Source of the DNA: Planctomycetota bacterium
GTDB taxonomy: Bacteria; Planctomycetota; Phycisphaerae; FEN-1346
Length of the DNA: 64,000 nt
Assembly: GCA_030602705.1 (NCBI GenBank)
Contig: JAUVZF010000005.1
Location: 2,663 to 66,662, forward strand
Reading direction: 5' to 3'
Shown here in pieces: positions 18,931-57,010 of the stretch (positions are counted from its first letter, which is position 1; every line of letters begins with the position of its first letter). The notes under the pieces are model-generated. The model searched no databases and was not told the origin of the DNA. It saw nothing but the letters and a program-made list of their open reading frames with translations. The position numbers and the translations under genes are program-made.

Positions 18931-18977
18931 GCAGGGCGACTCCTTTGATCAGGCTGAGTGCAAACTTGGTGCCACAC

Positions 18978-32625: not shown

Positions 32626-32739
32626 GTTTACCGTCTCCCTTGCCATGAGGTGTTGGCTCAGTTCCAGGCTGACTTGGGCCGGTTTTCATCGGCGCCGCGA
32701 GGCTGCAACGGCCCGCGTGCCGCGTTCGGCCGCGGCGGT

Positions 32740-35880: not shown

Positions 35881-37928
35881 CCTTTTCTCCCCACGTCAAA
35901 CAAGATCGACTCGATGTCCCTGAGGGCGTCCAGCCCTGCAATCGGCTGGGGCAACAGGGGCACCGAGACGACGCGCAGACCGGGATGTGCCTTGCGAAAC
36001 CTGGCCCGGTGCTGCTCCTGTACCTTTCTGGTGCGTCGGCAGAAGGCGCACCGGTTCTTGGGGATCATCTTGTTGAAGACGACCGAATGGACACCGACGC
36101 CCAGTCCGGAGAGCCGTTCGATGAGGCGCTGCGACTCGCGGACGGCCATCTTCTCGGCGACCGTCACAACGACCGATTCGGCCTGCGCGGGGTCCGTCAG
36201 GATGGCCTGAAAACGGCGCAGGCCGCGGGCCAGATCGACCATCTCCTCGCCGGCGGTGTGCCCGTACTTGAGCAATACTTTGAAGATGGCTCGCAGCCAG
36301 GCATGGGCCAGTTCAGGCAGTTCGAGAAACCGCAGCGCATGGCCGGTAGGCGCCATGTCGAAAACGAACAAGTCGTACTGCCCGCCGTCGGCCAGGTCCA
36401 TCACGCTCTTGAGGAACATGATCTCATCGACGCCGGGAGGAGAAAGCGACGCGAACTGCTGCATCGATTCCTTTTCGAACCGGACTTGCACTCCGCTGGA
36501 GGTGAGATTGTCGAAGATGCCGGTAATCGAATCGCCGTAACGCTGCCGGAAACGCTCGAACATCACCTCCGGATCCTGCTCGCAGGCGAAGAGGTTCTCG
36601 GCCGCCACGGACACGATCTCAGGACCGACGGGCGAACCGAGGCAATCGGCCAGGGAATGGGCCGGGTCCGCCGAGAACACGAGGACCCGCTTGTCGGGGT
36701 GGGCACCGGCCAGGCGCAGGCCCGTGGCGGCGGCCAGCGATGTCTTGCCCACGCCGCCCTTGCCCGCGAAGAACGTGAAACGAACGCCCTCGGTGAGCAC
36801 CAGTGGTTCGCCCGGCTTGCACCGGACGGGACGCGTCTCCTTCCCTTGCTTTGGCACCGATCGGACGAACGGATTGACCGAGGTAGGTTCGTCGGCGAGG
36901 CCCTCCAGCACGCCCACAACGCGGTTCAGGCCCTCTTTGCCGTGCACCTCGCCGGCAAACAAGGGGACAGGCAGCAATTTCCGGGGTGACAGCGCCGTCG
37001 TAGCGGCGAGCACCGATGATTGCCAGTGATTTCTGGCGGCACAGAACGCACACTTGGCCGGCTCGACCAACTGATTCACGATCAGTCGTTTTACATGGAT
37101 TCCCAGAGCGGCCAGTTCTTGCAGAAGGCGCTCTGTCTCGGCAAGGGCCATCGGCTCGGCGATCGTCACCGGAACGAATTCCGCCCGGTCACGCGCCGTG
37201 AACATTTGCCTGGCCCTCTCAATCCTCCGATCAAAGTTGATCAGGAACCGCTCCGCGGCGTCAACCGGCGGACGCTTCCGACCGCGGAAATGACGTTTCA
37301 GATAGCGGAACTTGCGCTGCATGATGTCCAGGGCCTTCAGCCAGCGCTTCATCTCCCCCGGCATGGTCAGGAAGCACAGCGCGTGCCCGGTCGGCGCGGT
37401 GTCCACCAGGATTAAACCCCATTGGCCCTCGTCCAGCAGGCGTGCGATCTCCACGACCGCCATCACCTCGTCCACGCCCGGAAGCGTCAGGTCGAAGAAG
37501 CCATCGATGTCGGAGCGGTCCAGGAGCGTCCCCCGATCGAGCAGGGTGCGCAAGGCTTCGCCGTTCTCCCTGGCAAAGGCGTCCGCCAGGCTCGCCGCGT
37601 CGAGTTCCATCGCCCACAGGCCGTCGGCGCCCCGGACGGGAACCGCCTCCGCGCCGACGGTCTGGCCGAGGCTGTCGGCCAGCGAGTGGGCCGGGTCGAC
37701 AGACAGGACGAGAATCCTGCGACCGTCGCGCGAGGGGCGGCGGGCGATGGCGAGTGCGGCGGCGGCTGCCAGCGTCGTCTTGCCCACACCGCCCTTGCCG
37801 CCGAAGAACACGAGTTGTGCCCCGGCCCATTCGTCGAGAAACCCCTTCGGCGGGGCGACCTGCGGCCGCGCTGCCGGCGGCCGCGCCGGCGGCGCCGTCG
37901 GGATCGCTTGTGCCATGGACACAGCCAA
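35877..37928 (-). CDS. ArsA/Get3-family ATPase, internally duplicated into two halves.
   Basis: Two P-loops (FFGGKGGVGKTTLAAAAALA and FFAGKGGVGKTSLAAATGLRLA), two DPAHSLAD(S/C)LG motifs, and two A-loops (VDTAPTGHALCFL, FDMAPTGHALRFL). Confidence 0.8.
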   Translation of the reverse strand: MAVSMAQAIPTAPPARPPAARPQVAPPKGFLDEWAGAQLVFFGGKGGVGKTTLAAAAALAIARRPSRDGRRILVLSVDPAHSLADSLGQTVGAEAVPVRGADGLWAMELDAASLADAFARENGEALRTLLDRGTLLDRSDIDGFFDLTLPGVDEVMAVVEIARLLDEGQWGLILVDTAPTGHALCFLTMPGEMKRWLKALDIMQRKFRYLKRHFRGRKRPPVDAAERFLINFDRRIERARQMFTARDRAEFVPVTIAEPMALAETERLLQELAALGIHVKRLIVNQLVEPAKCAFCAARNHWQSSVLAATTALSPRKLLPVPLFAGEVHGKEGLNRVVGVLEGLADEPTSVNPFVRSVPKQGKETRPVRCKPGEPLVLTEGVRFTFFAGKGGVGKTSLAAATGLRLAGAHPDKRVLVFSADPAHSLADCLGSPVGPEIVSVAAENLFACEQDPEVMFERFRQRYGDSITGIFDNLTSSGVQVRFEKESMQQFASLSPPGVDEIMFLKSVMDLADGGQYDLFVFDMAPTGHALRFLELPELAHAWLRAIFKVLLKYGHTAGEEMVDLARGLRRFQAILTDPAQAESVVVTVAEKMAVRESQRLIERLSGLGVGVHSVVFNKMIPKNRCAFCRRTRKVQEQHRARFRKAHPGLRVVSVPLLPQPIAGLDALRDIESILFDVGRKG

Positions 37929-39262: not shown

Positions 39263-41560
39263 TCACCGATTCTCCTCTTCCAGCAGGACTTCCTCCCGTG
39301 GTGCGTCTGACAGACCGTGTCTGAACCGTCGTGGCGGCGGCTTTCTTGGCGGATGCGCCTCAAGAACCGGACGTTGCCATGCACGCTCGTGATGATGGCC
39401 GGCGTGAGTCGGGCAAGGCGGGGCATCGGCCGCGCCGCCGCCGTAGAGTTCGGCGCCCATGCGGTCGAGGGCGTCCGGTCCCCGCACCTCTTGAGGAAAC
39501 TGGCGGACCGCCGTTACGACGCAGCCGATGGACGAGGCGAAGTCGGCGATCTCATCGACGCAAGCGAGTTGCTGGCACCGTTTGGCGGCGCAGAACGCGC
39601 AGTCCGTCGCGGGCGCCAGGAAGTTGCAGACGATGCGTGCTACGGGGATTCCGGCCGCCGTCACCGTCTCGAGCATCCGCTGCATCTCGAGTTTGCCCAT
39701 GGCCTCGGCGATCGTGACGGCGACCAGTTCCGTTTGGGCCGGGTCGGTCAGGGCGGCGTGCATCGTCTTGACGGCGTTGGTTGAGCGCACCATTCGCTCC
39801 GCAAGCGTGGCCAGGTGCTCGACGGGGCGCCTCTGTTGGTACTTGAGGATGGCCCGGTAGGTTACACGGAGCCAATCCTTGATTAGTTCCGGGAAGGCCA
39901 GGAGTTTGAGCATGTGCCCGGTGGGCGCCGGGTCGAGCACGTAGAGGTCGAACCGGTCGGCCTCGGTGAAGTCAAAGAGACGCTCCATCACGAGCACTTC
40001 CTCGACGCCCGGCGGGTAACTCTTGACGTACTCGAGCAGGGTGCCGCGGTCGAACTTGATCCGGTCCAGGTTCATGACGCCGATTTCGTGGCTTTCCCAG
40101 GCCTCGAAGGCGGCGTTGATGTTCTCGACGTACTCGGCACGGAACTTCTCGTAGAGCGCCGCGGCGTCCAGTTCCAGCGCGGTCAGGTTGTCGCGGCCGG
40201 GAACCGCGGTCAGGGAGTCGCCGATCTCCAGGTCGAGCGAGTCTCCGAGCGAATGCGCCGGGTCGGTCGAGACCACGAGAACTCGCTTCTCGGGGTAACG
40301 CCGCGCCAGGCGCAGCGCGGTGCTTGCCGACACGGACGTCTTGCCGACGCCGCCCTTGCCGGCGAAGATGAGGAACCGTTTGCCCGCTTCCACGGCCAGT
40401 TCGCTGGGAGGGGCGATTGAGCCGGACACGCTCACGCGGTTCGGCCCGGCCGGCTGCGGGGGCATCGGCTGCACGGAATCATTCTCGCCGGCCAGGACCT
40501 GGCCGTAGCGCACCAGGGCTTCCTGTCCGCGTATCTCTTCGGGGGAAAGTGGAACCTGGAGGATGCGGCGGGGAGCGAACTGCTCCTGAATCTGCTTCAG
40601 ATACGGCGTTTGCCCTTCCGCCTGCGACCGGCAGAAGGGGCAGTCCGGGTCGGCACGTCGCACGCGGTTGACGATCACGTTGCCGGCGGCAATGCCCTGG
40701 CGGTCGAGCGCCCGGGCGAGGCGCACCGTCTCGGCGACGCCCATCTCCTCGGGGATGGTCACCATGACGAACTCGCATCGCGCGGGGTCGGTGAGGAGTT
40801 TCCCGACAAACTCCATGTGCTTAATCAATTTGCTCAGGAACTGCGGCACTCCCCGTCCGCCCCTTTCCTGGCCGGGAATATTGAACAGACCCAGGCCCTG
40901 CAGGCCGGCCGAGGTCCGGTGATACTTGTTGAACGACCTCTTGAAGAGCGTGACCCAGCGAGCGTATTTTTCGGGCATCGTCAGCAGCCGCAGAGTGTGG
41001 CCCGTCGGCGCGGTGTCGATGACCACCAGGTCGCAGCGTGTGGAGGGGAGCGGATCGTGCGGGATGCCGCGCTGCAAGTACTCCGCCACGGCGGCGAAGA
41101 TCATCAGGTCTTCCATGCCGGGCAGACGGAAGGCGAGGAAATCGCGGATATCCGCCTGGTTGGAGAAGACGGTGCCGCGGGCCATTTGCTTGAGGTGCTT
41201 GCCGTACCTGCGTTTGAAGGTCGCCAGCAGGGAGGGCGGATCGACCTCGACCGCCGAGAGGTTGGGGACACCGCGCACGCGAACGATCTTCGGCCCCACG
41301 GACTGGTCAAGACTGTCGCCGAGCGAGTGGGCCGGATCGGTCGACATGATCAGCACCTGGCGGTCGGGCATGGCTTGGACCAGGCGCAGAGCGGTGGCGG
41401 CCGACGAGGTCGTCTTGCCGGTTCCACCCTTGCCGCCGAAGAACAGCAGTTGCAGAGAAGACGGGGCGCTCAGGAAACTCGGCGCCGCCTGCTTGCCGCC
41501 GCTATCCTGCTGGACAGCCTGTTGCTGTGTGGCTTCGGCTAGTAACGCTTGCGCGCTCAT
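39263..41560 (-). CDS. ArsA/Get3-family ATPase, internally duplicated (second paralog, 765 aa).
   Basis: FFGGKGGTGKTTSSAATALRL / STDPAHSLGDSL / IDTAPTGHTLRLL in half 1, and FAGKGGVGKTSVSASTALRLA / STDPAHSLGDSL / LDPAPTGHMLKLL in half 2. Confidence 0.8.
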   Translation of the reverse strand: MSAQALLAEATQQQAVQQDSGGKQAAPSFLSAPSSLQLLFFGGKGGTGKTTSSAATALRLVQAMPDRQVLIMSTDPAHSLGDSLDQSVGPKIVRVRGVPNLSAVEVDPPSLLATFKRRYGKHLKQMARGTVFSNQADIRDFLAFRLPGMEDLMIFAAVAEYLQRGIPHDPLPSTRCDLVVIDTAPTGHTLRLLTMPEKYARWVTLFKRSFNKYHRTSAGLQGLGLFNIPGQERGGRGVPQFLSKLIKHMEFVGKLLTDPARCEFVMVTIPEEMGVAETVRLARALDRQGIAAGNVIVNRVRRADPDCPFCRSQAEGQTPYLKQIQEQFAPRRILQVPLSPEEIRGQEALVRYGQVLAGENDSVQPMPPQPAGPNRVSVSGSIAPPSELAVEAGKRFLIFAGKGGVGKTSVSASTALRLARRYPEKRVLVVSTDPAHSLGDSLDLEIGDSLTAVPGRDNLTALELDAAALYEKFRAEYVENINAAFEAWESHEIGVMNLDRIKFDRGTLLEYVKSYPPGVEEVLVMERLFDFTEADRFDLYVLDPAPTGHMLKLLAFPELIKDWLRVTYRAILKYQQRRPVEHLATLAERMVRSTNAVKTMHAALTDPAQTELVAVTIAEAMGKLEMQRMLETVTAAGIPVARIVCNFLAPATDCAFCAAKRCQQLACVDEIADFASSIGCVVTAVRQFPQEVRGPDALDRMGAELYGGGAADAPPCPTHAGHHHERAWQRPVLEAHPPRKPPPRRFRHGLSDAPREEVLLEEENR

Positions 41561-44207: not shown

Positions 44208-45227
44208 CTAGGGCGCCTCCACCGGTTCGACGAGCAGGACCTCGGGGCGGTCGGTGTCGCGAAGGTCGAGTCCTTGCGGCGGGCAGAAACGCTTGAGGAG
44301 GTCCGCCGCCGCCTTGACGCGTTCGAACTTCTGCGGGAGGTTAGGGTCTGCGGGATCGGTGTCCGGATGAAAGCGGCGCATGGCGGACCGGGCGGCATCC
44401 GCCACCATCTGCGGGGTGATGCGTTCCGCCAAGTCGATCTCGCGCCGGGCCGCATCCAGGTCAGCCACCCGCGCACGATGCAACTGGACCGTGGTGAAAC
44501 TGTACGGCGGCAGTGGGCCGACGATGCGGAAGTTCAGGGCGCCCTGTTCCTGCCGGTCGGCTTCTGCGACCCGGGCTTCGAGCCGGTCACGCCCCTCGGC
44601 ATTAACCAGGAAGGCCGCGTTGATGATCATGGCCTCGTGGCGGGTCTGGTGCCGGACGGTCCGGCGCGCCACCTGTTCCCACTGCGGCAGGATGCGGTCT
44701 TCGAGGGCACGCTTCCTGTCATCGAGGCGGTCCTTGACGAGTTTGCCCAGGCCCAACCGTTCGGCCATCGACCGGCCGGGCGGGAGTTCGGCAATCCGGT
44801 TCTTGTGTTCCACGATGTCTTCTTCGCGGCCTATCTCCCGGAACACCTGCTGGATGTCCGGCCACATGGCCACCACGTCGATTTCGATCAGGCCGTCGAC
44901 TTCGGCGAGCAAAGCCTGCAGGTTGTCGCGGTTGGTCCGGAGCATCTCGGCCACCTGGACCTCGCTGTCAAGCACGGTTCCGAACTTCATAGGCAAGACG
45001 GTATGGCCGGCGTTCATAACCGTCTCAGAAACGAACTGGTGCTGGGCCAGGTGCCTGGCCAGTTCCTCCTTCGGCACCGAGGTGACGTCGCCGTTGCCGG
45101 TGTCGCTGACGACGGCGGCAATGCTGCCGTAGGCGATGCTATGGACGCTGGTCGCCTCGCCACCGACGCCGATCGGCCCGAAATCGGCGGATGCGCCGTC
45201 CGCGATGAATCCGTAGGTGTACTTCAT
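44208..45227 (-). CDS. GvpF/L-family protein fused to a C-terminal J-domain (Hsp70 co-chaperone module).
   Basis: GvpL core (YTYGFIADGA...IAAVVSD...LPMKFGTV...IVGPLPPYSF) followed by RREIDLAERITPQMVADAARSAMRRFHPDTDPADPNLPQKFERVKAAADLLKRF, which contains the J-domain HPD motif. Compare ...AYRKLAMKYHPDRN...KFKEIKEAYEVL. Confidence 0.75.
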   Translation of the reverse strand: MKYTYGFIADGASADFGPIGVGGEATSVHSIAYGSIAAVVSDTGNGDVTSVPKEELARHLAQHQFVSETVMNAGHTVLPMKFGTVLDSEVQVAEMLRTNRDNLQALLAEVDGLIEIDVVAMWPDIQQVFREIGREEDIVEHKNRIAELPPGRSMAERLGLGKLVKDRLDDRKRALEDRILPQWEQVARRTVRHQTRHEAMIINAAFLVNAEGRDRLEARVAEADRQEQGALNFRIVGPLPPYSFTTVQLHRARVADLDAARREIDLAERITPQMVADAARSAMRRFHPDTDPADPNLPQKFERVKAAADLLKRFCPPQGLDLRDTDRPEVLLVEPVEAP

Positions 45228-47419
45228 CAGGGGGCGTCTCCTTTTGCCGGCGGCTCGGCCGATTCGCCGATGACCTCACGCACCGCGGCATCCATATCGG
45301 CCGCCGTAAGGGCCATCTTCGAGAGCGGCAATTCCTTCTTCTCGGCAAGGTGGATGAACCGCCGGATGGCGTTAAGCGCGGCACAGCGGCAGATAGCGGC
45401 AATCCGGGCGCCGCTGGCGTGACCGCAGGCTTTTGCGATCCGCTTCAGGTCCACGTCGTCGGCCAGCGGCTTGCCGCGCATGTGCACCTTGAAGATCTCC
45501 AGTTTCGCGTCCTCGTCCGGAAACGGCAGTTCGATGATGAGGTCGAAACGGCCTTCTCGCAGGAGTGCGGGGTCGAGCATGTCCATGCGGTTCGTGGCCG
45601 CCAGGACAATGACGTCTTTGAGTTCTTCGATGCCGTCCATTTCGCTGAGGAACTGGCTGATGACGCGGTCTGCGGCGCCCTGGGCGGTGCCCCGCCTGGG
45701 CACCAGGGCGTCGATTTCGTCGAAGAACACGATGCAGGGCGCCGCCTGCTTGGCCTTGTGGAAGACCTCTCGCACGCCGCGCTCGCTCTCGCCCACCCAC
45801 TTGGACATAAGTTCCGGCCCTTTGACGGGGATGAAGTTGAGGCTGCTCTCCTTGGCCAGCGCTTTCGCCGCCAGCGTCTTTCCGGTGCCGGGGGCGCCGT
45901 GCATGAGGATGCCCTTGGCTGGCCGGGTCTTGGCGTGCTCGAAGAGTTTGCGGTGCTTGAGCGGCCACTCGACGGCTTCGCGGAGCGACTGCTTGACCTC
46001 CTGGAGGCCGCCGACGTCCGCCCAACCGACGTTGGGCACTTCGACGAAGACCTCGCGCATGACGGACGGCTCGACCTCGCACAGGGCTTCGCGGAAGTTG
46101 TCCATGGTGACCTCAAGCGTCTCGAGCGTCTCGTAGGGTATCTCTTTGAGTTCGAAGTCGATGTCGGGGAAGATGCCGCGCAGCGCTGCCATGGCGGCTT
46201 CGCGGCCGAGGGCCTCGAGGTCGGCGCCGACGTAGCCGTGTGTGATCTCGGCGATCTTGTCGAGGTCAACGTCTTCGGCCAGGGGCATGCCGCGGGTATG
46301 GATCTGGAGGATGTCGGCCCGGCCGTTGCGGTCCGGAATGCCGATCTCGAGTTCCCGGTCGAACCGCCCCGGCCGCCGCAGGGCGGGGTCGACCAGGTTG
46401 GGCAGGTTCGTGGCGCCGATGACGATGATCTGGCCGCGGCTCTTCAGGCCGTCCATCAGGGCGAGCAACTGGGAGACGACGCGTTTTTCGAGTTGCTTCT
46501 CGCCGCCCAACTCCGCGCGCTTCGGCGCGATGGCGTCGATCTCGTCGAGGAACACAATCGCCGGGGCGTGCGCGGAGGCGTCCTCGAAGATCTGGCGCAG
46601 GTGAGCCTCGCTCTCTCCGTAGTACTTGTGCATGATCTCCGGGCCGCTCAGGTGGGTGAAATAGGCGTCGGTCTCGTTGGCCACCGCCCGCGCGATCAGC
46701 GTCTTGCCGCATCCCGGAGGACCGTGAAGAAAGACCCCTTTCGGCGGTTCAATGCCAAGCCGCTCGAAGACCTCGGGGTACTTCAGCGGCAGTTCGATCA
46801 TCTCGCGTACCCGCTGGGTCTCACGCGCCAGCCCTCCGATGTCCTCATAGGTGACCCTTGCGCGAGCCGCGGGTTCGCCGGCCTTGGCTTCGCCGCGCAT
46901 CTCAATCGTGGTGGTCGATTGAATGAGCACGGCGCCCTTGGGCACGGTGGTAACGACCTCGAAATCCTGTGTCCGCGAGCCGAACATCGTCGCGCGCACG
47001 GAATCCCCCGCCGTAAGCGGCAGGCTCTCCAAAAGCGTTCCGATGTAACGCATGTCCCGCTTGCCGCGCAGGCCGCGCATCTCTGTCAGCGGCGCCAGGA
47101 CGATCTTCCTGGCGGGGGCGGCGTCGGCCTTCTCGATCTGGACGTGCTCGTCGATCCCGGCGCCCGCATTGCCGCGAAGGATGCCGTCGATGCGGATCAT
47201 GTCGGTGCCGCGATCCTCGACGTACGTCGGCATGACCTTCGCCGGCGTCGCACGCTTGCCGCGCACCCAGACAACGTCGCCGACCTTCACACCGAGCGGA
47301 TCGAACAGTTTCGGGTCGAACCGTGCGAGGCCGCGGCCGACGTCCTTGGACGCGGCTTCGGCCACCTTCAGCGAGAGCGTTGGGGCCTTCTTCTCTTTCT
47401 TCTTCGCGCTCGGAGTCAT
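45227..47419 (-). CDS. Cdc48/VCP-like AAA+ ATPase (N-domain, D1 and D2).
   Basis: Cdc48-type N-domain ([22 protein letters not shown]...[12 protein letters not shown]), two Walker A sites ([15 protein letters not shown]; [15 protein letters not shown]), and second-region-of-homology motifs. Start taken at MTPSAKKK. Confidence 0.85.
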
Positions 47420-47535
47420 GACGACTTTCCTGTTGCTCTCCCGCCGCTCGCCCGGTAGGCGCACGCCGCGGATGGGTATGCCGGCGCCGTCGCTTGCGTT
47501 CCTCGAGCCCGCCGCCTCAGGAGACCGGCAGTAAC

Positions 47536-48126
47536 CTATTCGCCTTTCTTCTTGAGGACGATCTCGAGGATGCCGTTCTCGTAGGAGGAGGTGACGTTCT
47601 CCTCGTCGACGACTGCGGGGAGCAGGACTTCCTTCTGGTACTTCCTCTTGCCCTCGGCCGAGAGCGTGAGCATGTCGCCCTTGACCTCCACGTGGATGTC
47701 GGCTTCCTGGATTCCCGGCAGTTCCGCGATGGCCCGGATGGTGTCGCCTTCCTCGAAGACGTCGACGATCGGCTCGCGCATTTCCTCGACGACCGGCCCC
47801 TTGGGGGTCTTCTTGATGTTGCCGAACGTCTCGACCTTCGGCTTGCCTCCGGCCATGGTGCGGACCGTGAAGCCGTAAACGCCTTTGATGTCCCTTCCGC
47901 GCCGCACGCCGGGAGGGATACCCCCGACGCGGAACTCGCCGGTCTTGCTCAGTTCCTCGCCCTTCTCGGCGAGTTCGGTGGCCTTGTCCACGAGGCTGCT
48001 GAGACCATTGATGAGCCCGCCAAGGCCAAGGCCCTTGAAGATGCCGCCAAGGTCAACCACGGGCGTGGCATCTTCCTCTGCGGCTTCCTCTTTCTTGTCC
48101 TGGTCTTTCTCTTCTTTTTTCGCCAT
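47536..48126 (-). CDS. Hsp20/alpha-crystallin-family small heat-shock protein (GvpH-like position).
   Basis: Start at [11 protein letters not shown] segment ...[34 protein letters not shown]...[13 protein letters not shown]. Confidence 0.75.
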
Positions 48127-48200
48127 GGTTCGATTCCTCTCTCGGTTTGTCGGCCCGGCGCCGCTTCCGATTGCGGAGGGTCTGCCCCGCGGCGCCTTGT

Positions 48201-48551
48201 TCACTCGTCGGACACGTTGGCGGCGGTCGCCATTTCCTCGATCCGGTCGGCCCGCTCCTCGACGATGGCGGTGATGCGGCGTGCTCTGGCAACCCGGCCT
48301 CTCAGGTTCTTCACCACTCCGCGCCACATGTCCGCCAGGATCGCTTGCGACTTCGGTGTCAACCGGTAAGCGCGCCTGGGCCTTTTGCCCGAATCGTCCA
48401 CGCATTCGGTCAGAAGGTCGCGGTTGACCATCCCCGCGCAGAGGTACTTCGTGTACTCAACGGAGTTCTCCAGGTGTTTGGCAACCTGGCGGAGGGTGAC
48501 CGTGTCGGTGTCGTCGAACAGGAGCAGGATGTGGTATTCGTTGGGCGTCAT
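48201..48551 (-). CDS. Small wHTH protein of the cluster family.
   Basis: LRQVAKHLENSVEYTKYLCAGMVNRDLL. Confidence 0.5.
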   Translation of the reverse strand: MTPNEYHILLLFDDTDTVTLRQVAKHLENSVEYTKYLCAGMVNRDLLTECVDDSGKRPRRAYRLTPKSQAILADMWRGVVKNLRGRVARARRITAIVEERADRIEEMATAANVSDE

Positions 48552-48563
48552 CCAGGCGGCCCC

Positions 48564-49469
48564 TTAACAATGCTTCTCGATCAGTGTGATGAGCCCTTTT
48601 TCCAGGCCGGGATCGGCATCTCCGTCCCCCCCGCCCGCGAGCACGTCGAGACACGTTTGCCGGAATGCCACGTCGGAAGCCGACATTCTCATGCCGTTCG
48701 TGCTCACGAGTCTGGCGATCATGATGCTGGCCCGGACGGTGGGAACCGTGCCGGTGTCCGTTTCCCTGGCGCCGCGCACAACGTCCACGATGGCGCGGGC
48801 CGTCTCGTTCGCCACGCCGCCCTTGGCGGCGGCGATGGCGATCTCGCTGTCGCGATCGTAGTGGCCGAGCCGGATGGTGATCATGCGGTCCAGCAGCGCA
48901 TCCTGTGCCCTGTGGATCCCGGCGTACTCCTCGGGGTTGCTGGTGAAGATGGCGCAGAACTCCGGTGCCACGCGCAGGTACCCGTCCTCTCCCCGGGCGG
49001 CCGGCAGGTCGAGAATCTTCTCCTCCAGGATGGGCAGCAGGACGTTGTTGGCCTCGGCCTTCGAGCGTGTGAACTCGTCGTAGAGCAGCGTGTAGCCGTT
49101 TTTGCAGGCCGCGGTCACGCGGTTGTCGACCCATTCGGGCGAGACGCTCTCTTCCGACTTGAGGACCGTGTGGATGAAGTTATCGACGAGTTTCTTTCGC
49201 CGGTATCCGTACTGGCCGCCGATCAGGTCCGAGGTGCCGAACTCCTCGTCGCCGTGGATCAGCATCACGGGGCGGCCGATCTGGCCCGCGACGTACATGG
49301 CGATCGTCGTTTTGCCCGTGCCGGCCGGCCCGCTCAGATGGACGGGGAAGCCTGCCGCCAAGTACCTCATGGCCCGTTCCACCACGTTCTGCACCGCGGG
49401 CGTGACGACGAAGCCGGGCTGCTCCTTGTCGATGAGGATCGGTGAGACCTCTGAATGTGTTGCGGTCAT
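48564..49469 (-). CDS. gvpN: Gas vesicle AAA+ ATPase GvpN (CbbQ/NirQ/MoxR-like).
   Basis: FPVHLSGPAGTGKTTIAMYVAGQIGRPVMLIHGDEEF...LLYDEFTRS...AIFTSNPEEY. Start at MTATHSEV after GGAGG. Confidence 0.85.
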   Translation of the reverse strand: MTATHSEVSPILIDKEQPGFVVTPAVQNVVERAMRYLAAGFPVHLSGPAGTGKTTIAMYVAGQIGRPVMLIHGDEEFGTSDLIGGQYGYRRKKLVDNFIHTVLKSEESVSPEWVDNRVTAACKNGYTLLYDEFTRSKAEANNVLLPILEEKILDLPAARGEDGYLRVAPEFCAIFTSNPEEYAGIHRAQDALLDRMITIRLGHYDRDSEIAIAAAKGGVANETARAIVDVVRGARETDTGTVPTVRASIMIARLVSTNGMRMSASDVAFRQTCLDVLAGGGDGDADPGLEKGLITLIEKHC

Positions 49470-49594
49470 GGTCTGCCTCCGGGTCTGGAGAGGCGCCTTC
49501 CTCGGGAAGCCAGGCGAACCGCCGGTGCCATCTCTATGGTTTTGATGGGGCACATGTGCGGGTCCCCGAACGGCTTCCGAGGAAGGCTCCCTCT

Positions 49595-50515
49595 CTAATG
49601 ACAGGGCTCACAACGGATGTTCTCCAGTGCAGGGTCGGCGCTGACCATGTACACGATGGCCGGCGCCTGCCCGGTTCGTTCCAGCCTGCGTCGTCTGACC
49701 TCTTCCCAGGGCTCGACGCCCGTGGCGATGCCGCCGTCGCTCATGTCTCTGTGGCCGACGACGCGGCCGACCCGGCGGAGCGCATTGTGCAAGGCCTGGG
49801 GTGTGCGGCCGTGGGTGCGCAGGGCTGCCTGGAGGCGGTCCACAATGGATTCGCGTCGCGATGCCTCGTAGCGCGCACCCTCCAGCGGCACGCAGTCCGT
49901 CAGGTGGAGGCCGGCGTCCACGCTGGCCCGGAACAGGACCGGGCGTCCAGCCCGGTTCTTGCGTCTCAGCCGCCTTTCGTCCCAAGGCTCGAATACGATG
50001 TGACACCCGTCCGAGTCCCAGTGGACGTGGTCGACCTCGCCCACAGGGCGTATCGACTCGGCGAGGAGGTCCGCGGCACGGGCGGGGCGTTCTTCGGGCG
50101 GCAGTTCGCTAAGACGGGGCCCGAAGGCGGACAGCGCCTCCTGAAGCGAACCGCTCAGGCGCGCCGCCCGCCCCAGCGCAAGGGCCCTCATTCTCTTCTT
50201 CCTCTCGTTTCCCTGCTGGTACTCGGCCGCCTCTCGTTCAAGCCGGGCCACCCGCTGTCTTGCGAGCCTTGTCCCGAGCGTTCCCCTGGCCCTCGCCCAT
50301 TCCCGCGCCATGATCTTTCGGGCAAGGCGGTTCAGGCCGGATGCGGAAAGGCTCTTCGGCTTTTTCTTCTTGCGGAAGGCGGCGCCGGCGGGCGTTGCGG
50401 GCAGTTCCCTCCACCCGGCGGAATCCGGCTCGGAGGGCCACAAAGGGGCCAATTTCTTCGCAGGATCGCCGCCCTTCTTGAAGGCAATCGTGGAACCCGA
50501 CGGTCCATCGGTCAT
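49595..50515 (-). CDS. Hypothetical protein (306 aa).
   Basis: ORF with high GC3 and no recognisable motif. Confidence 0.45.
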   Translation of the reverse strand: MTDGPSGSTIAFKKGGDPAKKLAPLWPSEPDSAGWRELPATPAGAAFRKKKKPKSLSASGLNRLARKIMAREWARARGTLGTRLARQRVARLEREAAEYQQGNERKKRMRALALGRAARLSGSLQEALSAFGPRLSELPPEERPARAADLLAESIRPVGEVDHVHWDSDGCHIVFEPWDERRLRRKNRAGRPVLFRASVDAGLHLTDCVPLEGARYEASRRESIVDRLQAALRTHGRTPQALHNALRRVGRVVGHRDMSDGGIATGVEPWEEVRRRRLERTGQAPAIVYMVSADPALENIRCEPCH

Positions 50516-50529
50516 GCCAGGTCCTTTCC

Positions 50530-50868
50530 TCAGTATGGCAGGTCCATCTTCTTCATGGATCGGGGGAGTTTCTTGGCTTTGCCGGCACCCGGCTTAGGCG
50601 TCCCATGCGCGTTTGCGGGCAATTGGGCCTCGAGCACCTGGCCCAGTTTTTGCTGGATCCTCTGCATGTCTTTCAGCATAAGTTTTTGATCCAGGGCGAC
50701 GAACTCCTTGCGGGTCTCCATGTTTTCACATTCGCGTTCGTGGCGTTCCTGCCTCTTCTGCTGAAGGTACATGTCGAGGAACTCTTGCCCGACTTGCTTG
50801 GGCATAGCCCGCAGTCGCATCTTCTGCGAGGTCCTCAGGTTGTTGATCCCCGTCATTTTCTGTTGCAC
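50530..50868 (-). CDS. Hypothetical coiled-coil protein (112 aa).
   Basis: ORF only. Confidence 0.4.
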   Translation of the reverse strand: MQQKMTGINNLRTSQKMRLRAMPKQVGQEFLDMYLQQKRQERHERECENMETRKEFVALDQKLMLKDMQRIQQKLGQVLEAQLPANAHGTPKPGAGKAKKLPRSMKKMDLPY

Positions 50869-50882
50869 GAGGGGCCTCCCTT

Positions 50883-51059
50883 CTATCTCAGCCGGCCCTT
50901 CTTGCGTGCGTGAACGGTGATGAACCGGCCCGGCCCGGGGCCGCAGGCCTTGATCTCGACGGTGGCTCCGGGCTTGAGGCCCGTCTCGCGCGCGATGTTC
51001 TTGGCGATTCGGATCTTGCCTTCTTCGTCCACCTTCGCGAACGCTCTCATCAGCGCCAT
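50883..51059 (-). CDS. Unlisted small AbrB/SpoVT/MazE-like protein (58 aa), MALMRAFAKVDEEGKIRIAKNIARETGLKPGATVEIKACGPGPGRFITVHARKKGRLR.
   Basis: Hand-translated. The KVDEEGKIRI swapped-hairpin motif is paralogous to the N-terminus of 34646..35101. Sits 3 nt downstream of gvpN-2. Confidence 0.45.
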   Translation of the reverse strand: MALMRAFAKVDEEGKIRIAKNIARETGLKPGATVEIKACGPGPGRFITVHARKKGRLR

Positions 51060-51062
51060 GGT

Positions 51063-52088
51063 TTACTCTCCTTCCGTTGCGCCCGCCATTTCGAGGACAG
51101 GCTGCTCAGACTCAGGCCCGAGGCCGGGCTGTTGCGGCTCGGGCGGCCCTTCGGCCGGCATCGGCCGCGAGGCGCAGTGCTTGTCGATCAGATTCGAGAT
51201 CACCTCCGCCGCCCTGGAGTGGTGCGCGCGGTCGCCCACGCGGCTGGTCTCGGAGGACAGGATGTCGATGCAGGTCTGCCTGAAGACGGTGTTGTCGCGG
51301 GCGACGACGCCCTTGCGAATCCTGAGCGTCTTGGCAATCATCATGGCGCCGCGCACCGTCGGGGCGAACTCGATCGCGTCGGACTCGCGCAGGGCGCGCA
51401 CGATCCGCACGATGCTCGTGGCGTCGGCCTCGGACAGGCCCGACTTGGCCACCGTAATCTGGATCTCGGTCTCCTCGTCGTAGTGGTCCAGGTCGAGGGT
51501 GATCATGCGGTCCCTGAGGGCGTCCTGGCTGCGGTGGACGCCGGCGTATTCCTCCGGGTTGCTGGTGAAGATGGCGGTGAAGTCCGGGTCGACCCGCAGG
51601 TAGTTCCCGTCACCCTCGCGTGCGGCGGGCAGGTCCATCATGCGTTCCTGGAGGACCGAGAGCAGGACGTTGTTGGCTTCGGGCCGCGAGCGCGTGAACT
51701 CGTCGTAGATGAGCGTAAAGCCGTGCTTGCAGGCGACCGTCAGGCGGTTGTCCACCCAGCGGCGCTGCATGTCCTCTTCGGTCTTCAGGACCGAGTGGAT
51801 GAAGTTGTCCACGACCTTTCGGATGCGGTACCCGTACTCGCCGCCCACCAGGTCGGAGGTCGAGAACTCCTCGTCGCCGTGGATCATCACGACCGGCCGG
51901 CCGATCTTGGCCGCAACGTGCATCGCCAGCGTGGTCTTGCCGGTGCCGGAGACGCCCCGGAAGTGAATGGGGAACCCGGCAGCGACGTACCCGAGTGCCC
52001 GCGCCGTGATGTCCTTGACCGCCTTGGTCTCGACGAAGTTCGGCAAGGGGCGCGGTTCCAGAACCGTCGTCATCTCCTCGATTGGCAT
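51063..52088 (-). CDS. gvpN: Gas vesicle AAA+ ATPase GvpN (second paralog).
   Basis: FPIHFRGVSGTGKTTLAMHVAAKIGRPVVMIHGDEEF...LIYDEFTRS...AIFTSNPEEY. Confidence 0.85.
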   Translation of the reverse strand: MPIEEMTTVLEPRPLPNFVETKAVKDITARALGYVAAGFPIHFRGVSGTGKTTLAMHVAAKIGRPVVMIHGDEEFSTSDLVGGEYGYRIRKVVDNFIHSVLKTEEDMQRRWVDNRLTVACKHGFTLIYDEFTRSRPEANNVLLSVLQERMMDLPAAREGDGNYLRVDPDFTAIFTSNPEEYAGVHRSQDALRDRMITLDLDHYDEETEIQITVAKSGLSEADATSIVRIVRALRESDAIEFAPTVRGAMMIAKTLRIRKGVVARDNTVFRQTCIDILSSETSRVGDRAHHSRAAEVISNLIDKHCASRPMPAEGPPEPQQPGLGPESEQPVLEMAGATEGE

Positions 52089-52200
52089 GAGTCTTCTCCC
52101 TCCCTTTAGTAAGGATCCCGGTGCAGCCCTCGCGCTGCCGGTCGGACCGTTCCCACCCTCGCACGGAGCCTGGAGGCCGGAGACGACGAGATCACAAACG

Positions 52201-52788
52201 TCACTCGTTCGCCTTGGCCTTTTTCTTCTTCTTCGCCCTCTTGTTTTTGTTCGCCTTCTTGTTCCTATTCGCTTTCTTGCGGGCCGCTGCTTTGGGGGCA
52301 GCGACCGTCGTCTTCCGGTCGGCTGAGGACGTCCAACGCATCGAGGTCGAACTGGGAGCGGCGGCCGTCGTCTTAGGCCTGGGTACGTCTCGCGGGGCCC
52401 CTTGCTCGATGCCCTCCGGGTGCAGCGCTGCGTGCTCCTTGCTCACAACGCCCGTGCCGCCACAGTCGGTGCAGGTCAGGTAGTACCCGTGCACGTGGCC
52501 TTTGCCGTCACAGGAAGGACACTTGACGGCGTCCTTGGGCACCGTGACCATGCCCTTGCCCCTGCATACCATGCAGGTGATGCGTTTGTTTCGTTCGACG
52601 CCCGTGCCGCCGCAGAAGGCGCACTCGATGGCCGGCTTGGTGAGGCTCACCTTGCCGCGCCCGCCGCACACCTGGCACTTCGAGAGTTTTGACATTATTT
52701 CAAAGGGGTCCTTCCCGGTTCCTCCGCAGAAGGCACACGTCGTGGTCAACCTTCCGGCGGTCCTGGTTAACACTTTTATCTGTGCCAT
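52201..52788 (-). CDS. DnaJ-type zinc-finger repeat protein with a Lys/Ala-rich basic tail.
   Basis: CAFCGGTGKD/CQVCGGRGK/CAFCGGTGV/CMVCRGKGM/CPSCDGKGH/CTDCGGTGV, and C-terminus ...KKANRNKKANKNKRAKKKKKAKANE. Confidence 0.65.
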   Translation of the reverse strand: MAQIKVLTRTAGRLTTTCAFCGGTGKDPFEIMSKLSKCQVCGGRGKVSLTKPAIECAFCGGTGVERNKRITCMVCRGKGMVTVPKDAVKCPSCDGKGHVHGYYLTCTDCGGTGVVSKEHAALHPEGIEQGAPRDVPRPKTTAAAPSSTSMRWTSSADRKTTVAAPKAAARKKANRNKKANKNKRAKKKKKAKANE

Positions 52789-52891
52789 TGGTTATCTCCT
52801 CATCCGTTGCCCGCAGGTCCGGGCCGTCAGGCGCGCCTGGCGGCGTGCCGGCGTCCGGCCGCTCGGGCGGCCGGCGGTTACCGAAGGCTCG

Positions 52892-54088
52892 CTACGCGAA
52901 ATAGACCGAACCTTCCTTCTCCACCTTGCCTTCCTCAACCAGTTCCCGGGCAACGGGAAGGAGGTCGCGCCAACTCTCGAAGCCCAACCGCTCGGCCACG
53001 GCGGCCAGTTTCATGCCGTCTTCGCTCCCGGCGATCAGGGCCAGGACCTTCCGTTTCAACTCAGCGGGTGAAGGCCCTTCCTTGGCGCCTTTGGCAGGCT
53101 TGGGCTTCGCGGGCGCCGGCCTGCCGTCGCCGCCGTGGACATGTCTCATCTTCGCGAGCAGGTCCTGCCACGCCGCCGCCGTCTCGGCACGGTCCGCAGC
53201 AGCCTCTGCCTTGAGTTCGACGTTCTCTTTGTGGAATTGGTCCAGAAGGCCCGCCACCTCCTGTGCACGCGCCTTGTCCTGTTCGGCCGCCTCGGCGATC
53301 AGTGCGGTGTTCTGCTGCGCGAGATCCTTGACCGTGGCGTCAGCCTCCGCCCTGATATCAAGATTCTCCTGATGGAACTGGGTGACCAGTTCCGTCATCT
53401 CCTGGGCCCTGGCCTTGTCCTCCTCGGCGGCCTCAGCCTTCAGGGCGACGTTCTGCTGCGCGAGGTCCTTGACGGTCGCGTCAGCCTCCGCCTTCAGGTC
53501 CACGTTCTCTTTGTGGAATTGGGTGACCAGTTCCGTCATCTCTTGTGCCCGCGCCTTGTCCCCCTCGGCGGCCTCAGCCTTCAGGGCGACGTTCTGTTGG
53601 GCGAGGTCCTTGACCGTGGCGTCAGCCTCCGCCTTCAGGTCCACGTTCTCTTTGTGGAATTGGTCCACAAGACCCGCCATCTCCTGTGCCCGCGCCTTGT
53701 CCTCTTCGGCGGCCTCGGCGATCAGGGCGGCGTTCTGCTGCGCGAGATCCTTGACCGTGGTGTCAGCCTCCGCCCTGATATCAAGATTCTCCTGATGGAA
53801 CTGGGTGACCAGTTCCGCCATCTCCTGCGTCCGCGCCTTGTCTTCCTCGGCGGCCTCGGCGATCAAGGCGACGTTCTGCTGCGCGAGATCCTTGACCGTG
53901 GCGTCAGCCTCCGCCTTCAGGTCGACGTTCTCTTTGTGGAATTGGTTCAGAAGGTCCGCCACCTCCTGCCTCCTGGCCTTGCTCTCCTCGGCGGCTTCGG
54001 CGATAATGCGCGGCACGTCCTGCTTGCGCTGCGTGTGACAGGCAGCCATCTCCTCGGCCAGGCTCTTTAGATCCGTTGCGTTCGACAT
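52892..54088 (-). CDS. GvpC-like repeat protein (about seven 45-aa repeats) with a C-terminal wHTH-like domain, directly downstream of gvpA.
   Basis: Repeats of AEAAEEDKARAQEM(A/T)ELVTQFH(K/Q)ENVDLKAEADATVKDLAQQNVAL(I/K), with matching 135-bp DNA periodicity at 53150-54050. Start taken at MSNATDL after GGAGGA. Confidence 0.6.
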   Translation of the reverse strand: MSNATDLKSLAEEMAACHTQRKQDVPRIIAEAAEESKARRQEVADLLNQFHKENVDLKAEADATVKDLAQQNVALIAEAAEEDKARTQEMAELVTQFHQENLDIRAEADTTVKDLAQQNAALIAEAAEEDKARAQEMAGLVDQFHKENVDLKAEADATVKDLAQQNVALKAEAAEGDKARAQEMTELVTQFHKENVDLKAEADATVKDLAQQNVALKAEAAEEDKARAQEMTELVTQFHQENLDIRAEADATVKDLAQQNTALIAEAAEQDKARAQEVAGLLDQFHKENVELKAEAAADRAETAAAWQDLLAKMRHVHGGDGRPAPAKPKPAKGAKEGPSPAELKRKVLALIAGSEDGMKLAAVAERLGFESWRDLLPVARELVEEGKVEKEGSVYFA

Positions 54089-54254
54089 TGCCTGTTCCTC
54101 CATCCTGCATCGACTTGACGTTACTGACTCAGGAGAGGGGTGCCCGTTACACGCCTCTTCGCAAAGACTCCAGGCTGCGCCCGAACCGCCTGCCTTGCAT
54201 CGGCCGGTGCAGGAGGGCCCGTGTCGGACGCTCCTACCGCTCGGGGGCAACCCA

Positions 54255-54281
54255 GCGTCCTGTCCGACTCAGAGCCGGACG
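54255..54281 (-). terminator. Stem-loop immediately 3' of the gvpA stop (between gvpA and the gvpC-like gene). Possible attenuator or partial terminator, or an mRNA-stabilising hairpin.
   Basis: Minus-strand RNA ACGUCCGGCUCUGAGUCGGACAGGACGC forms a 5-6 bp outer stem plus a 5 bp inner stem. No U-tract. Confidence 0.25.
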
Positions 54282-54488
54282 TTACGCCTCTTCGGGAAGA
54301 AGCCCCACGGCCTCGGCGTACTTCAGGAACGTCTCGACGCCGGCGATGACGATCCGCGCCTCGATGGCCAGGAGTTCGATCCCGACGAGCGACACCCGCA
54401 CCCAGGCATCGATGACGATGCCCTTGTCGAGGATGCGGTCCACGACTTCGACCAGACTGGAACTCGCGATTGCTTTCTCGACAGCCAT
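54282..54488 (-). CDS. gvpA: Major gas vesicle structural protein GvpA.
   Basis: [63 protein letters not shown] is near-identical to the GvpA consensus. Start at MAVEK. Confidence 0.92.
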
Positions 54489-54924
54489 TTCCGTCTCCCT
54501 TCCTAAGAACGTGTGCGTACATAGCGATACGGCGAGCCTGCACCGAGCAGGCTCCACCTCCGGAGGTTATCAGGTAAGATCCGACGTGCCGGCGGCGCGC
54601 GGCGGCGGCGCTTATCGCCTCGGCGCCGCCTCGAGAGCGTTTGGGAACGAGGAAGAAGGGAATAAGCCGCCCCGGCCCGGCCGCATCGGACGGCCGGCGG
54701 GGCGGGCGACTGATCACCGCGACTTTACTCCTACGCATCTCCATCCCAGCGTTCCCAGCGCTTACGGCATCGAGACGTGCATCCTTGCAACCACTAATTG
54801 ACGGGTTGCGGGTGCAACTTAAAGGTTTTTCTGCTTTTCATCAAAAATTCCGGCCGAGCCAATCACGCATGCACAATCGTCGTACCCGCCCGTCCTCGCC
54901 GGCGTCCTTCCGCGGCCGCCGGTG

Positions 54925-54950
54925 CCTTCTGTGTGTGTGTGGGGGGGTGT
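54925..54950. repeat. (GT)5 followed by a G7 homopolymer, CTGTGTGTGTGTGGGGGGGTG, in the gvpA leader.
   Basis: Read from the sequence. A simple-sequence tract with slipped-strand potential. Confidence 0.5.
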
Positions 54951-55059
54951 GCGTCGCGGCCGCGCGTGGGGGACGCGGCCGCGACGACGTGGGGTCCAAC
55001 GCGTGCAGGCCGTTGGTCATGTCGATGCGGGCTCCAGTGCTCATTGCTGATTCCAGAAG

Positions 55060-55078
55060 GGGCAAACGCCGTGCCATC
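55060..55078 (-). promoter_or_regulatory. Consensus sigma-54 (-24/-12) promoter, TGGCAC-GGCGT-TTGC, oriented toward gvpA.
   Basis: Plus-strand GCAAACGCCGTGCCA at 55062-55076 is the reverse complement of TGGCACGGCGTTTGC. A sigma-54 activator gene sits immediately upstream. Confidence 0.5.
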
Positions 55079-55247
55079 GGGAGCGAGCGCGTCGCGGCGC
55101 CAAGCATGCGGCCATATCAGTATTGGCAGAGGCGATGCGCGACGATGGCCGTTCGCGCGGCAGGAGCGGAAGCACCTGCGGTTGTGGAGAGCGTTCCCCA
55201 TAGTTGCGGAATCCATTCCATAGGCGGCAGGGGCTGCCCATCCGGCG

Positions 55248-56291
55248 TTATGCCCGAGAGATGCCGTAATCCCTTGCCTTGGTGAGGAGGGTTTTGTAGT
55301 CGATCCGGAGGAGCCGAGCGGCCTTGGCCTTGTTTCCGCCGGTCCGCCTGAGGACCTCGGCGAGGATCTGCCGTTCGACGCGGGCCACGACTCGCCGCAC
55401 GACTTCCTTGAAGGAAGCGCTGCCCCCGATCACCTCGTTGATGTCGGGCGGCGCGGCATCGGCCTCCAGGGGCGCCCCGGAGATGTCCAGGTGGTCGGGT
55501 TCGATGCGGGTATCGGCCATGAGGACGCCCCGGCGGACGACGTTGCGGAGTTCGCGGACGTTGCCCGGCCACGGGTAGTTCAGGAGCCGCTCGATGGCGG
55601 CCTCGGAGAGCCCGCGGACGTCCTTTTCGAGTTCGCGGTTCGTCAGTTCGACAAACCGGTTCGCTAGTGGGATGATGTCGGCCCGGCGCCGGCGCAGCGG
55701 CGGCACCTCGATGTGGAACTCGTTCAGGCGGTGATACAGGTCGCGGCGAAAGCCGTCGGCCCGAACGAGCGAGCCGACATCGCGATTGGTGGCGGCGATG
55801 ACGCGGATGTCCACCTCGATGCCGTCTGTGCTGCCGACGCGCCAGATGCGCCTCTCCTGGAGCGCGCGGAGGAGCCTTGGCTGGAGGTCAAGGGGCAGGT
55901 TCGAGACCTCATCGAGGAAGAGCGTCCCGCCGGAGGCCAGTTCGAACTTGCCCGGCCGTGCCCGGTCCGCCCCCGTAAAGGCGCCCTTCTCGTGCCCGAA
56001 CAGTTCGCTCTCGATGAGGGTCTCGGGTATCGAGCCGCAGTCCACCGCGATGAACGGCGCCGAGGCGCGGCGGCTGATGCGGTGAATCGCCCGGGCGACG
56101 ACTTCCTTTCCGGCGCCGGTCTCGCCGGTGATGAGCACCGTAAAGGACGTGGGGGCCACCCGCTCGACGGTCGCGAAGACCGCCTGCATCGCCTCGCTTG
56201 ATCCGATGACGTCGCGCGTGGAGATGCCGCTGTCCAGGCAGGGGGCTTCTGCGACGTTCTCCTGGATGGTGCCGCTCGTTGCCGTAGTCAT
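55248..56291 (-). CDS. Sigma-54-dependent transcriptional activator, PspF-like (AAA+ domain plus C-terminal HTH, no receiver or sensor domain).
   Basis: [33 protein letters not shown] (GAFTGA motif), and C-terminal [22 protein letters not shown]. Start taken at MTTATSGT; the upstream part of the listed ORF is probably non-coding. Confidence 0.85.
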
Positions 56292-57010
56292 GAGGAGCCC
56301 TTTCCGTTGCTCGCCATGAGATTGTGGCCGGCTCTCGACGTACGCAATCTGCCGTGGGAGCAGGCGACGAACACGGGACAGGCGCGGCGTGAGGGCGGAC
56401 AGAGCACCACCGCTGAAGAACGGCCGGACCTCTGGTCCAGGCATGCGCTCAACATTCTCTCCCATCCCAGCAGCGCCAACTAGGACGGTTATCGGACGTT
56501 CTCCGCCGACGGCTTGAGGAATTCTTGCACGGATTCGGAGTCTGTGAGACGGAGCCGCACCAGGCGTCTTGGGGAAGACGAATCAGGGCGGGCACGTTCT
56601 TCGCATCTCCGGCGGCGCTGCCGACGAGACACACGAACTCTCTCGCCCCGGCGCCGGAGGCGTCTGTTCCAACAAGGACCGAACGCGAGAACCTAGCACA
56701 CGCCCTGCCCGCCTGTCCGAAGTCCGGACCCGTTCCGGGGAAGACCGCCGGGTGGATGGACTCCAGGAAGATAGAGTGGTGGTATCGGCGGGCGAGGCGC
56801 CTCGCCCGGGCCTGCCGACGGCCAGATACCCCAGGACGCCCAGCACGAGGACGGCACGATGTGGGTCTGGGACTTCGAGGTCACGCTGCTGTAGCCGCAT
56901 CACACATCTGCCTTCGCCCCGGTCATAGCCATGGCTGGGGCGCTCTCCGGGCCTTCGGGCCAGCCTTGACCGTTGCAGCAGAGAATCGGCCAACGACTTC
57001 CATCTGAGGC

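Follow-up and report, generated by a model that had tools for sequence, protein, structure and literature searches.

A repeat protein encoded between gvpA and gvpN in a planctomycetal gas-vesicle cluster: a candidate GvpC of a new sequence family

The stretch of DNA analysed here (the window) comprises 64,000 nucleotides of contig JAUVZF010000005.1 from a Planctomycetota bacterium (assembly GCA_030602705.1), has a GC content of 64%, and carries on its minus strand a gas-vesicle (gvp) cluster of about 29 kb (27852-56465) that is unusually large and rich in chaperones. Read along that strand, the gene for the major shell protein, gvpA, is followed by a 193-nt spacer, a gene for a 398-residue repeat protein, a gene for a zinc-finger protein, and gvpN. 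The repeat protein is reasonably likely to be a shell-binding brace of the GvpC type, one whose attachment to vesicles we infer and whose sequence family is new and undescribed. To our knowledge, the cyanobacterial and haloarchaeal proteins are the only characterised sequence types of GvpC; judged by its constant place in the GvpC slot, the family described here is probably a third.

The open reading frame (ORF) for the repeat protein occupies the slot between gvpA and gvpN on the minus strand and runs from an ATG at 54088 to a stop codon at 52892-52894. This ATG is taken as the start because the N-terminal sequence MSNATDLKSL is conserved and because L010, the locus of the closest homologue, has an in-frame stop codon just upstream; a longer, TTG-initiated ORF was rejected on the same grounds, the homologues beginning with MSNA(T/D)DL. 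Sequences resembling the Shine-Dalgarno motif of the window are found at the same place in three related loci (L001, L003 and L007). The first-pass annotation of this DNA had described gvpA followed by a repeat protein on the same strand, and this arrangement is borne out, by PF00741 and NF006874 for gvpA and by the ORF at 52892-54088. Its seven 45-residue repeats, encoded by 135-bp DNA repeats about 90% identical, are replaced by units of 47 residues and 141 bp, the period given by Tandem Repeats Finder (TRF), with a total of 5.7 repeats: five full units and one partial unit, which over its last 15 residues passes into the AETAAAWQDL motif common to the family. Among units 1-5, nucleotide identity is 78-91% and amino-acid identity 72-89%, with units 2 and 5 the closest pair; three residues spaced i, i+7 and i+11 (R11, L18 and F22) never vary between units.

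The best-scoring TRF period is a higher-order one of 423 bp (three units; 88%). Across the array (53159-54004), units 1-2-3 resemble units 4-5-6, with 91% nucleotide identity between units 2 and 5, a likeness suggesting that a whole segment was duplicated recently rather than units being added one by one. Exact nucleotide runs of 45-56 nt are shared between units, which makes unequal recombination, and hence a change in copy number, plausible; the earlier suggestion of a copy-number hotspot thus appears sound, and both the number and the period of the repeats differ between close relatives.

In an AlphaFold2 (AF2) model based on a 22-sequence alignment, residues 3-317 are helical with one low-confidence break, and the predicted local distance difference test score (pLDDT) drops below 50 in the linker at residues 317-336. 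The C-terminal domain (residues 341-398), modelled alone, is predicted with a pLDDT of 96.5 to be a winged helix of topology H-b-H-H-b-b, and Foldseek matches it to the winged-helix domains of Zalpha, MotA, CggR, ScpB, IclR, MarR and ArsR proteins at template-modelling (TM) scores of 0.75-0.84. The tail resembling a winged helix-turn-helix (wHTH) that had been noted from the sequence is confirmed in this respect. It had also been counted among several locus-specific wHTH domains, and here a hidden Markov model (HMM) of the domain detects no second copy in the window and no detectable relationship to the MarR-like protein of the cluster. The domain has no cluster of Cys or His residues, that is, no zinc motif, and neither in the window protein nor in its relatives does it match a regulator family of Pfam or NCBIfam above the cut-off. 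The protein as a whole is acidic (isoelectric point (pI) 4.8, net charge about -30, grand average of hydropathy -0.59), as is the winged-helix domain (pI 5.05, net charge -2).

An exhaustive HMMER search of 1.84 billion representatives recovered 98 proteins at E<=0.001, and the sources of the family are Planctomycetota and deltaproteobacterial metagenome-assembled genomes (MAGs). The word-indexed homology search was dominated by low-complexity candidates and yielded 2, 5 and 19 proteins, all unnamed; alignments A3 and A4 were too diverse to find loci, and the narrower A5 worked. The members found by homology search have no Pfam domain and no label other than "hypothetical protein", and no description of the family was found in the literature searched. 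All share a layout that begins with an N-terminal module (M-x-N-A-D-D-L-R-R-L-A-E-E...A-Y-E-x-R) and continues with a repeat region of very variable period, an E-T-A-A-A-W-K-x-L-L motif, a variable and often acidic linker, and a winged helix with the consensus G-(I/L)-K-M..I-A-E.L-G.E-N-W-R-S-L-I-P..R-E-L..E-G....K-E.S.Y-F.

The genomic setting of the family is consistent. Nine loci extend far enough upstream to be judged (the window, L001, L003, L004/5, L006, L007/L011, L008, L009 and L013); in every one of them gvpA lies no more than about 1.5 kb upstream, and the loci that reach far enough downstream carry gvpN or other gvp genes. L008 and L009 come from deltaproteobacterial MAGs, and L007, from an uncultured Planctomycetota MAG, has the same order as the window: gvpA, repeat gene, zinc-finger gene, gvpN. 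GvpA and GvpN of L007 are 86-88% identical to those of the window (GvpN 86%), which, with the GC content of 64%, makes a planctomycetal origin of the window most likely; the L007 repeat region, at 41% identity, has diverged far more and is under half the length. The L010 protein, of about 272 residues, matches the window protein at 82% identity in the N-terminal module and 91% in the winged helix; its repeats are of 18 or 36 residues. No canonical GvpC was found in the window or in the long related loci, so that the GvpC slot would otherwise be empty.

An HMM of the N-terminal module finds every family member and, in addition, a paralogue of about 211-238 residues that has no winged helix. In deltaproteobacterial loci a protein of this kind, of about 211 residues, is encoded between gvpA and the repeat gene (L004 4018-4653; L006 8979-9617). 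The window orthologue is a 238-residue ORF on the minus strand (15930-16646), 37 kb from the repeat gene; it belongs to an operon of unknown genes that is preceded by a perfect match to the sigma-54 promoter, TGGCAC-N5-TTGCA (18959-18974, minus strand).

The repeat lengths follow a geometric rule. Clearly repetitive members of the family have periods of 18, 25, 33, 36, 44, 47, 51, 58, 65 and 73 residues, and if 3.62-3.64 residues are allotted to each helical turn, every one of these ten distinct periods comes close to an integral number of turns. They deviate from integers by 0.078 turn on average, a closeness that random period sets seldom reach (p = 0.0002, with pitch optimisation allowed for); the fit to the 3.5 residues per turn of a coiled coil is worse than chance. 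The 47-residue unit makes 13.0 turns at 3.62 residues per turn. The commonest best autocorrelation period in the family is 33 residues, with a signal that is weak in many members. Whole-turn, non-heptad periods speak against a heptad coiled coil and for one face that is constant from repeat to repeat, which is the geometry expected of a straight helix lying on a surface, like GvpC. Apolipoproteins, perilipins, alpha-synuclein and LEA proteins are surface-binding proteins with amphipathic repeats of 11/3 or 18/5 periodicity, and in them, as would be the case here, a non-heptad periodicity holds one face to the surface; these proteins bind lipid rather than a protein lattice, and share with the family neither a gvp context nor homology.

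Of the known systems, the haloarchaeal GvpC of Halobacterium salinarum (PF05465) has a similar layout. Its gene also lies directly after gvpA and before gvpN, and its 382 residues are close in number to the 398 found here. It too is acidic, and its six to seven N-terminal helical repeats are joined by an extended linker to a compact domain of about 55 residues at the C-terminus (PMC10903477, PMC9372576). GvpN, GvpO and other accessory proteins bind to this domain, and so does GvpC itself (PMC9372576). The haloarchaeal repeats are 32-40 residues long rather than 47, the window protein has no PF05465 match, and in place of the zinc-finger domain the protein described here has a winged helix, with a zinc-finger protein encoded next door. 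Since the zinc motif of haloarchaeal GvpC is inside the same protein, the repeat protein and its zinc-finger neighbour may, by analogy, be the haloarchaeal parts split over adjoining genes.

The likeness to the cyanobacterial GvpC of Anabaena flos-aquae (PF01304) lies in the gene position, the continuous helical repeat protein, the variable repeat number and the alpha2 helix of the presumed partner, GvpA. The 33-residue cyanobacterial repeat makes 9 turns and the 47-residue repeat 13, both at about 3.63-3.67 residues per turn, and 33-residue repeats occur in many relatives. Helix alpha2 of the window GvpA (residues 51-61) is nearly identical to the docking site of what we take to be Anabaena GvpA (alpha2 VETYLKYAEAV, with numbering that agrees with PMC9994262), from which it differs by one change, Y54F. 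Cyanobacterial GvpC runs along the ribs on this helix (PMC9994262, PMC10185304), and its site on alpha2 includes E52 and E59 (PMC9994262). A short motif, (K/Q)AR-AQ-E...L..F, is common to both proteins, and the spacing of R11, L18 and F22 is that of R19, Q26 and L30 on the face with which GvpC binds GvpA, a correspondence to be read as a lead and not as a test. The window protein differs from cyanobacterial GvpC in its lack of a PF01304 match, in having a conserved N-terminal module and a winged helix, in being about twice as long, and in a repeat unit that does not span a whole number of GvpA subunits.

From these comparisons a model can be drawn up; what it says of shell stiffening, of the winged helix and of the spacer RNA described below is inferred. 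A helix of about 315 residues, or about 47 nm, would lie on the outer surface of the vesicle, follow the GvpA ribs and stiffen the shell, and because 47 residues make 13 helical turns, successive repeats would turn the same face to it. The N-terminal module and the winged helix, the latter on its flexible linker, would make protein-protein contacts, joining molecules head to tail or, like the haloarchaeal GvpC C-terminal domain, binding GvpN or other assembly factors. Fast expansion, contraction and change of period in the array would tune the strength of the shell, and the structured RNA would uncouple expression of gvpA from that of the repeat gene, through processing or stability of the transcript or through the access of ribosomes to their binding site.

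A number of results weigh against a GvpC-type brace, and they begin with sequence: the repeat protein has no detectable homology to either known GvpC family. PF01304 gives no match for the window protein (E<=1) or for eight relatives (E<=10). The positive control for this model scores 249.4 bits; it is a sequence that we take to be Anabaena GvpC, and it is validated by its Pfam score and by the consensus repeat printed in PMC9994262. PF05465 is likewise missing from the window protein, its sole trace being a score of 12.7 bits (E 0.16; cut-off 22.4) in the relative P0026. Alignment of the family profile with GvpC by hhalign gives a probability of 0.55%, a custom repeat HMM reaches no more than 12.6 bits in the comparison with cyanobacterial GvpC, and sequence searches of Pfam, NCBIfam and the PDB (the sequence set of which holds no GvpC) return nothing or chance coiled-coil matches only. 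The first-pass label "GvpC-like" therefore holds for the gvpA-gvpN slot, the acidic helical repeats and the confinement of relatives to gvp clusters, and fails for homology, including the PF01304 comparison that had been proposed for it.

Further points on the same side concern the repeat unit and the domains. GvpA subunits are spaced at 12.1-12.7 A, and one 33-residue GvpC repeat spans four of them (PMC9994262, PMC10185304). The 47-residue unit, at 47 x 1.5 A = 70.5 A, spans about 5.6-5.8 subunits, which is not a whole number. A rule equating repeat length with the GvpA lattice was dropped, as periods of 25, 33, 58 and 65 residues fit it and those of 18, 36, 44 and 47 do not. For the 47-residue unit the hydrophobic moment falls short of significance (p = 0.11), as does that of true GvpC in the same test; Fourier analysis of hydrophobicity and whole-unit moments did not discriminate, true GvpC included. 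The conserved residues W33, R34, K51 and Y56 sit on the face of the winged helix that is usually employed for nucleic-acid binding, and their placement makes a regulatory role conceivable. In the deltaproteobacterial loci either of the two proteins with the N-terminal module could be the shell binder.

Some of the same features could also be read as those of a scaffold or organiser at work during assembly, and not of a lasting brace. The helix of such a protein would be a ruler or tether, and its termini would recruit GvpN, GvpO, GvpF or chaperones, or link vesicles to one another or to the nucleoid, a role comparable to that of the clustering factor GvpU or to the adaptor role of the haloarchaeal GvpC C-terminus. 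The conservation of the termini, as opposed to the freely variable helix, is what such a protein would be expected to display, and a second gvp-linked protein carries the N-terminal module too. The cluster is moreover rich in chaperones and ATPases (two GvpN, CDC48, Hsp20, Hsp70, two ArsA and two DnaJ-type zinc-finger proteins), and the Foldseek matches include the protein-binding ScpB and methyltransferase dimerisation domains. The whole-turn rule, however, points to a constant binding face, for which a passive spacer has no need, and the gene occupies the position of gvpC, where co-transcription with gvpA is expected. On balance a scaffold is considered unlikely.

It is less likely still that the protein is a nucleic-acid-binding regulator, with a winged helix that binds DNA or an RNA leader and a long helix that oligomerises, in control of gvp expression. 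The winged-helix fold itself, with its best matches to Zalpha, MotA, CggR, IclR and MarR, is consistent with this proposal, as are weak matches to HTH_IclR, HTH_24 and MarR_2 in relatives, the conservation of W/R where helix 3 begins and of K/Y within the wing, and the presence just upstream of a conserved element that is partly palindromic at its P3 hairpin. Yet the domain is acidic (its family consensus is rich in Asp and Glu), and a fast-changing repeat helix of about 300 residues corresponds to no known regulator architecture; an oligomerising coiled coil is unlikely because the repeat periods are not heptad-based. The leader is confined to a Planctomycetota subgroup whereas the winged helix is family-wide, and dedicated regulators are already at hand in the sigma-54 activator and the MarR-like protein.

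The element in question is a conserved sequence of about 135 nt in the spacer between gvpA and the repeat gene, which is probably a structured RNA. RNAalifold and single-sequence folds agree on three helices, P1-P3, and four independent loci share the invariant blocks GGTTGCCCC, GGGCGC..CT..AGTCTT and GAGGCGTGT-N4-GGCACCCCTCTC. Identity across the spacer is 66-72%, compared with 44-63% at four-fold degenerate sites of gvpA and gvpN. In the aligned helices 96.8% of cells are paired, as against 40-50% with slid partners; five pairs change on both sides, and many of the changes in P1-P3 are G-U wobbles, which are workable on the sense strand only. The covariance model R1 finds the element once per Planctomycetota-type locus, at 128-139 bits, and nowhere else, deltaproteobacterial loci included. 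An Rfam cmscan of 50000-57000 (E<=1) returned nothing in 54089-54281. Against the structure stands the finding that, with four independent sequences, shuffles match the observed covariation in 17-40 of 500 trials; since they still reach the observed values, the structure is supported but not proven. The fold of the whole spacer is unremarkable (z-score -1.6). The spacer after the repeat gene contains GC-rich hairpins (z-score -0.8) that are conserved no further than the closest relative.

Two other explanations of the spacer were rejected. A small ORF on either strand has stops in different frames between loci and no conserved start, and a putative sigma-54 promoter, CGGCAC-N5-TCTC, has no -12 GC and an inconsistent spacing.

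Immediately upstream of this element is the small hairpin that had been reported directly after the gvpA stop codon, and which is indeed present at 54262-54280, beginning 2 nt past the stop. The further proposal that it is an intrinsic terminator setting the GvpA:GvpC ratio by partial termination is improbable: the 8-bp stem is stable and GC-rich, and every related locus has a short hairpin of differing sequence at the same place, but the stem is followed by AGGACGCUGGG with no U-tract, the terminator scan does not call it, its strength ranges from -3.5 to -13 kcal/mol among loci without conservation of sequence, and selection acts mainly on the larger P1-P3 element that follows it. Translational control, or processing or stabilisation of the gvpA transcript, seems more likely than simple partial termination, because the 3' arm of P3, CCCCUCUC, which resembles an anti-Shine-Dalgarno sequence, could pair with the downstream GGAGGA. 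Any control of the GvpA:GvpC ratio, if real, is more likely to work through the 135-nt element.

A variant that combines these ideas is a third class of coat protein, of independent evolutionary origin and self-regulating, in which the winged helix of molecules not bound to a shell would bind P3 of their own mRNA, where CCCCUCUC could compete for GGAGGA. We regard it as a speculation with a very small chance of being correct; if it were true, synthesis of the coat would follow the amount of shell under construction.

The features on which the GvpC-type reading is based, and the cluster genes around them, are listed in Table 1. The cluster also contains GvpF/L, G, O and K and J/M paralogues.

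Table 1. Positions of the repeat gene, the spacer elements and other genes of the gvp cluster in the window
Feature	Position	Strand	Details
Sigma-54 activator	55248-56465		Upstream of gvpA
gvpA, major gas-vesicle shell protein, 68 aa	54282-54488	-	PF00741 E 1e-16; NCBIfam GvpA NF006874 123.6 bits
Small hairpin GUCCGGCU-cug-AGUCGGAC	54262-54280	-	8 bp, 3-nt loop, -12 kcal/mol
Conserved element, ~135 nt	54130-54264	-	Alignments, RNAalifold, covariance model
P1 long stem	54239-54261 paired with 54164-54186	-	
P2 inner hairpin	54209-54237	-	
P3 hairpin GAGGCGUGU-loop-GCACCCCUC	54134-54158	-	Stem invariant, loop variable
Shine-Dalgarno sequence GGAGGA	54096-54101	-	7 nt before ATG
N-terminal module, residues 1-28, MSNATDLKSLAEEMAACHTQRKQDVPRI	54005-54088	-	79-82% identical to L007 and L010
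Five full 47-residue (141-bp) tandem repeats, residues 29-263	53300-54004	-	TRF; predicted continuous helix
Sixth, partial repeat to AETAAAWQDLL motif and helix end, residues 264-317	53138-53299	-	
Disordered basic Pro/Lys/Ala-rich linker, residues 318-340	53069-53137	-	pI 10
C-terminal winged-helix domain, residues 341-398, and stop codon	52892-53068	-	AF2, Foldseek
DnaJ-type CXXCXGXG zinc-finger protein, Lys-rich tail	52201-52788	-	PF00684 E 8e-11
gvpN, AAA+ ATPase	51063-52088	-	TIGR02640 347 bits
Second gvpN	48564-49553	-	Cluster member
MarR-like wHTH protein	48201-48551	-	
Hsp20, long ORF form	47536-48405	-	NCBIfam Hsp20 match from residue 141
CDC48	45227-47464	-	Cluster member
GvpL/F with J-domain-like tail	44208-45227	-	Cluster member
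Two tandem-domain ArsA ATPases	35877-37928 and 39263-41560	-	Cluster members
Second DnaJ-type zinc-finger protein	31591-32646	-	Cluster member
Hsp70	27852-29687	-	Cluster member

Several observations were made on the neighbouring genes. Four CXXCXGXG motifs are present in the zinc-finger neighbour of the repeat protein, the gene for which is syntenic in L006, L007 and L010. Directly after gvpN, a 58-residue ORF (MALMRAFAKVDEEGKIRIAKNI...) is kept in the window (50883-51059, minus strand) and in L007 (9298-9498); judged by eye, it resembles a domain of the AbrB/SpoVT type. As called, the ORFs for the MarR-like protein and Hsp20 share about 200 nt, and the true Hsp20 start probably lies further downstream than called, since the NCBIfam match begins well inside the ORF. 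The 760-nt gap between the activator gene and gvpA (54489-55247) contains a one-mismatch match to the sigma-54 promoter, TGGCACGGCGTTTGCC (55061-55076, minus strand), about 575 nt upstream of the gvpA ATG, a distance that would imply a very long gvpA leader or an unannotated element.

GvpC sets the collapse pressure of gas vesicles and is a handle for the engineering of acoustic reporter genes. A third family of GvpC, if the reading holds, would differ from the others in its terminal domain and in its freely variable repeat length, and would show which features a shell brace needs, and those suggested here are a straight helix of whole turns together with an adaptor domain, with no particular sequence. 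That repeats should make up whole turns is one simple constraint of this kind, and Planctomycetota and sulfate reducers would be a source of new parts for vesicle engineering. The conserved spacer RNA, in turn, offers a concrete handle on how the large excess of GvpA over coat protein is set.

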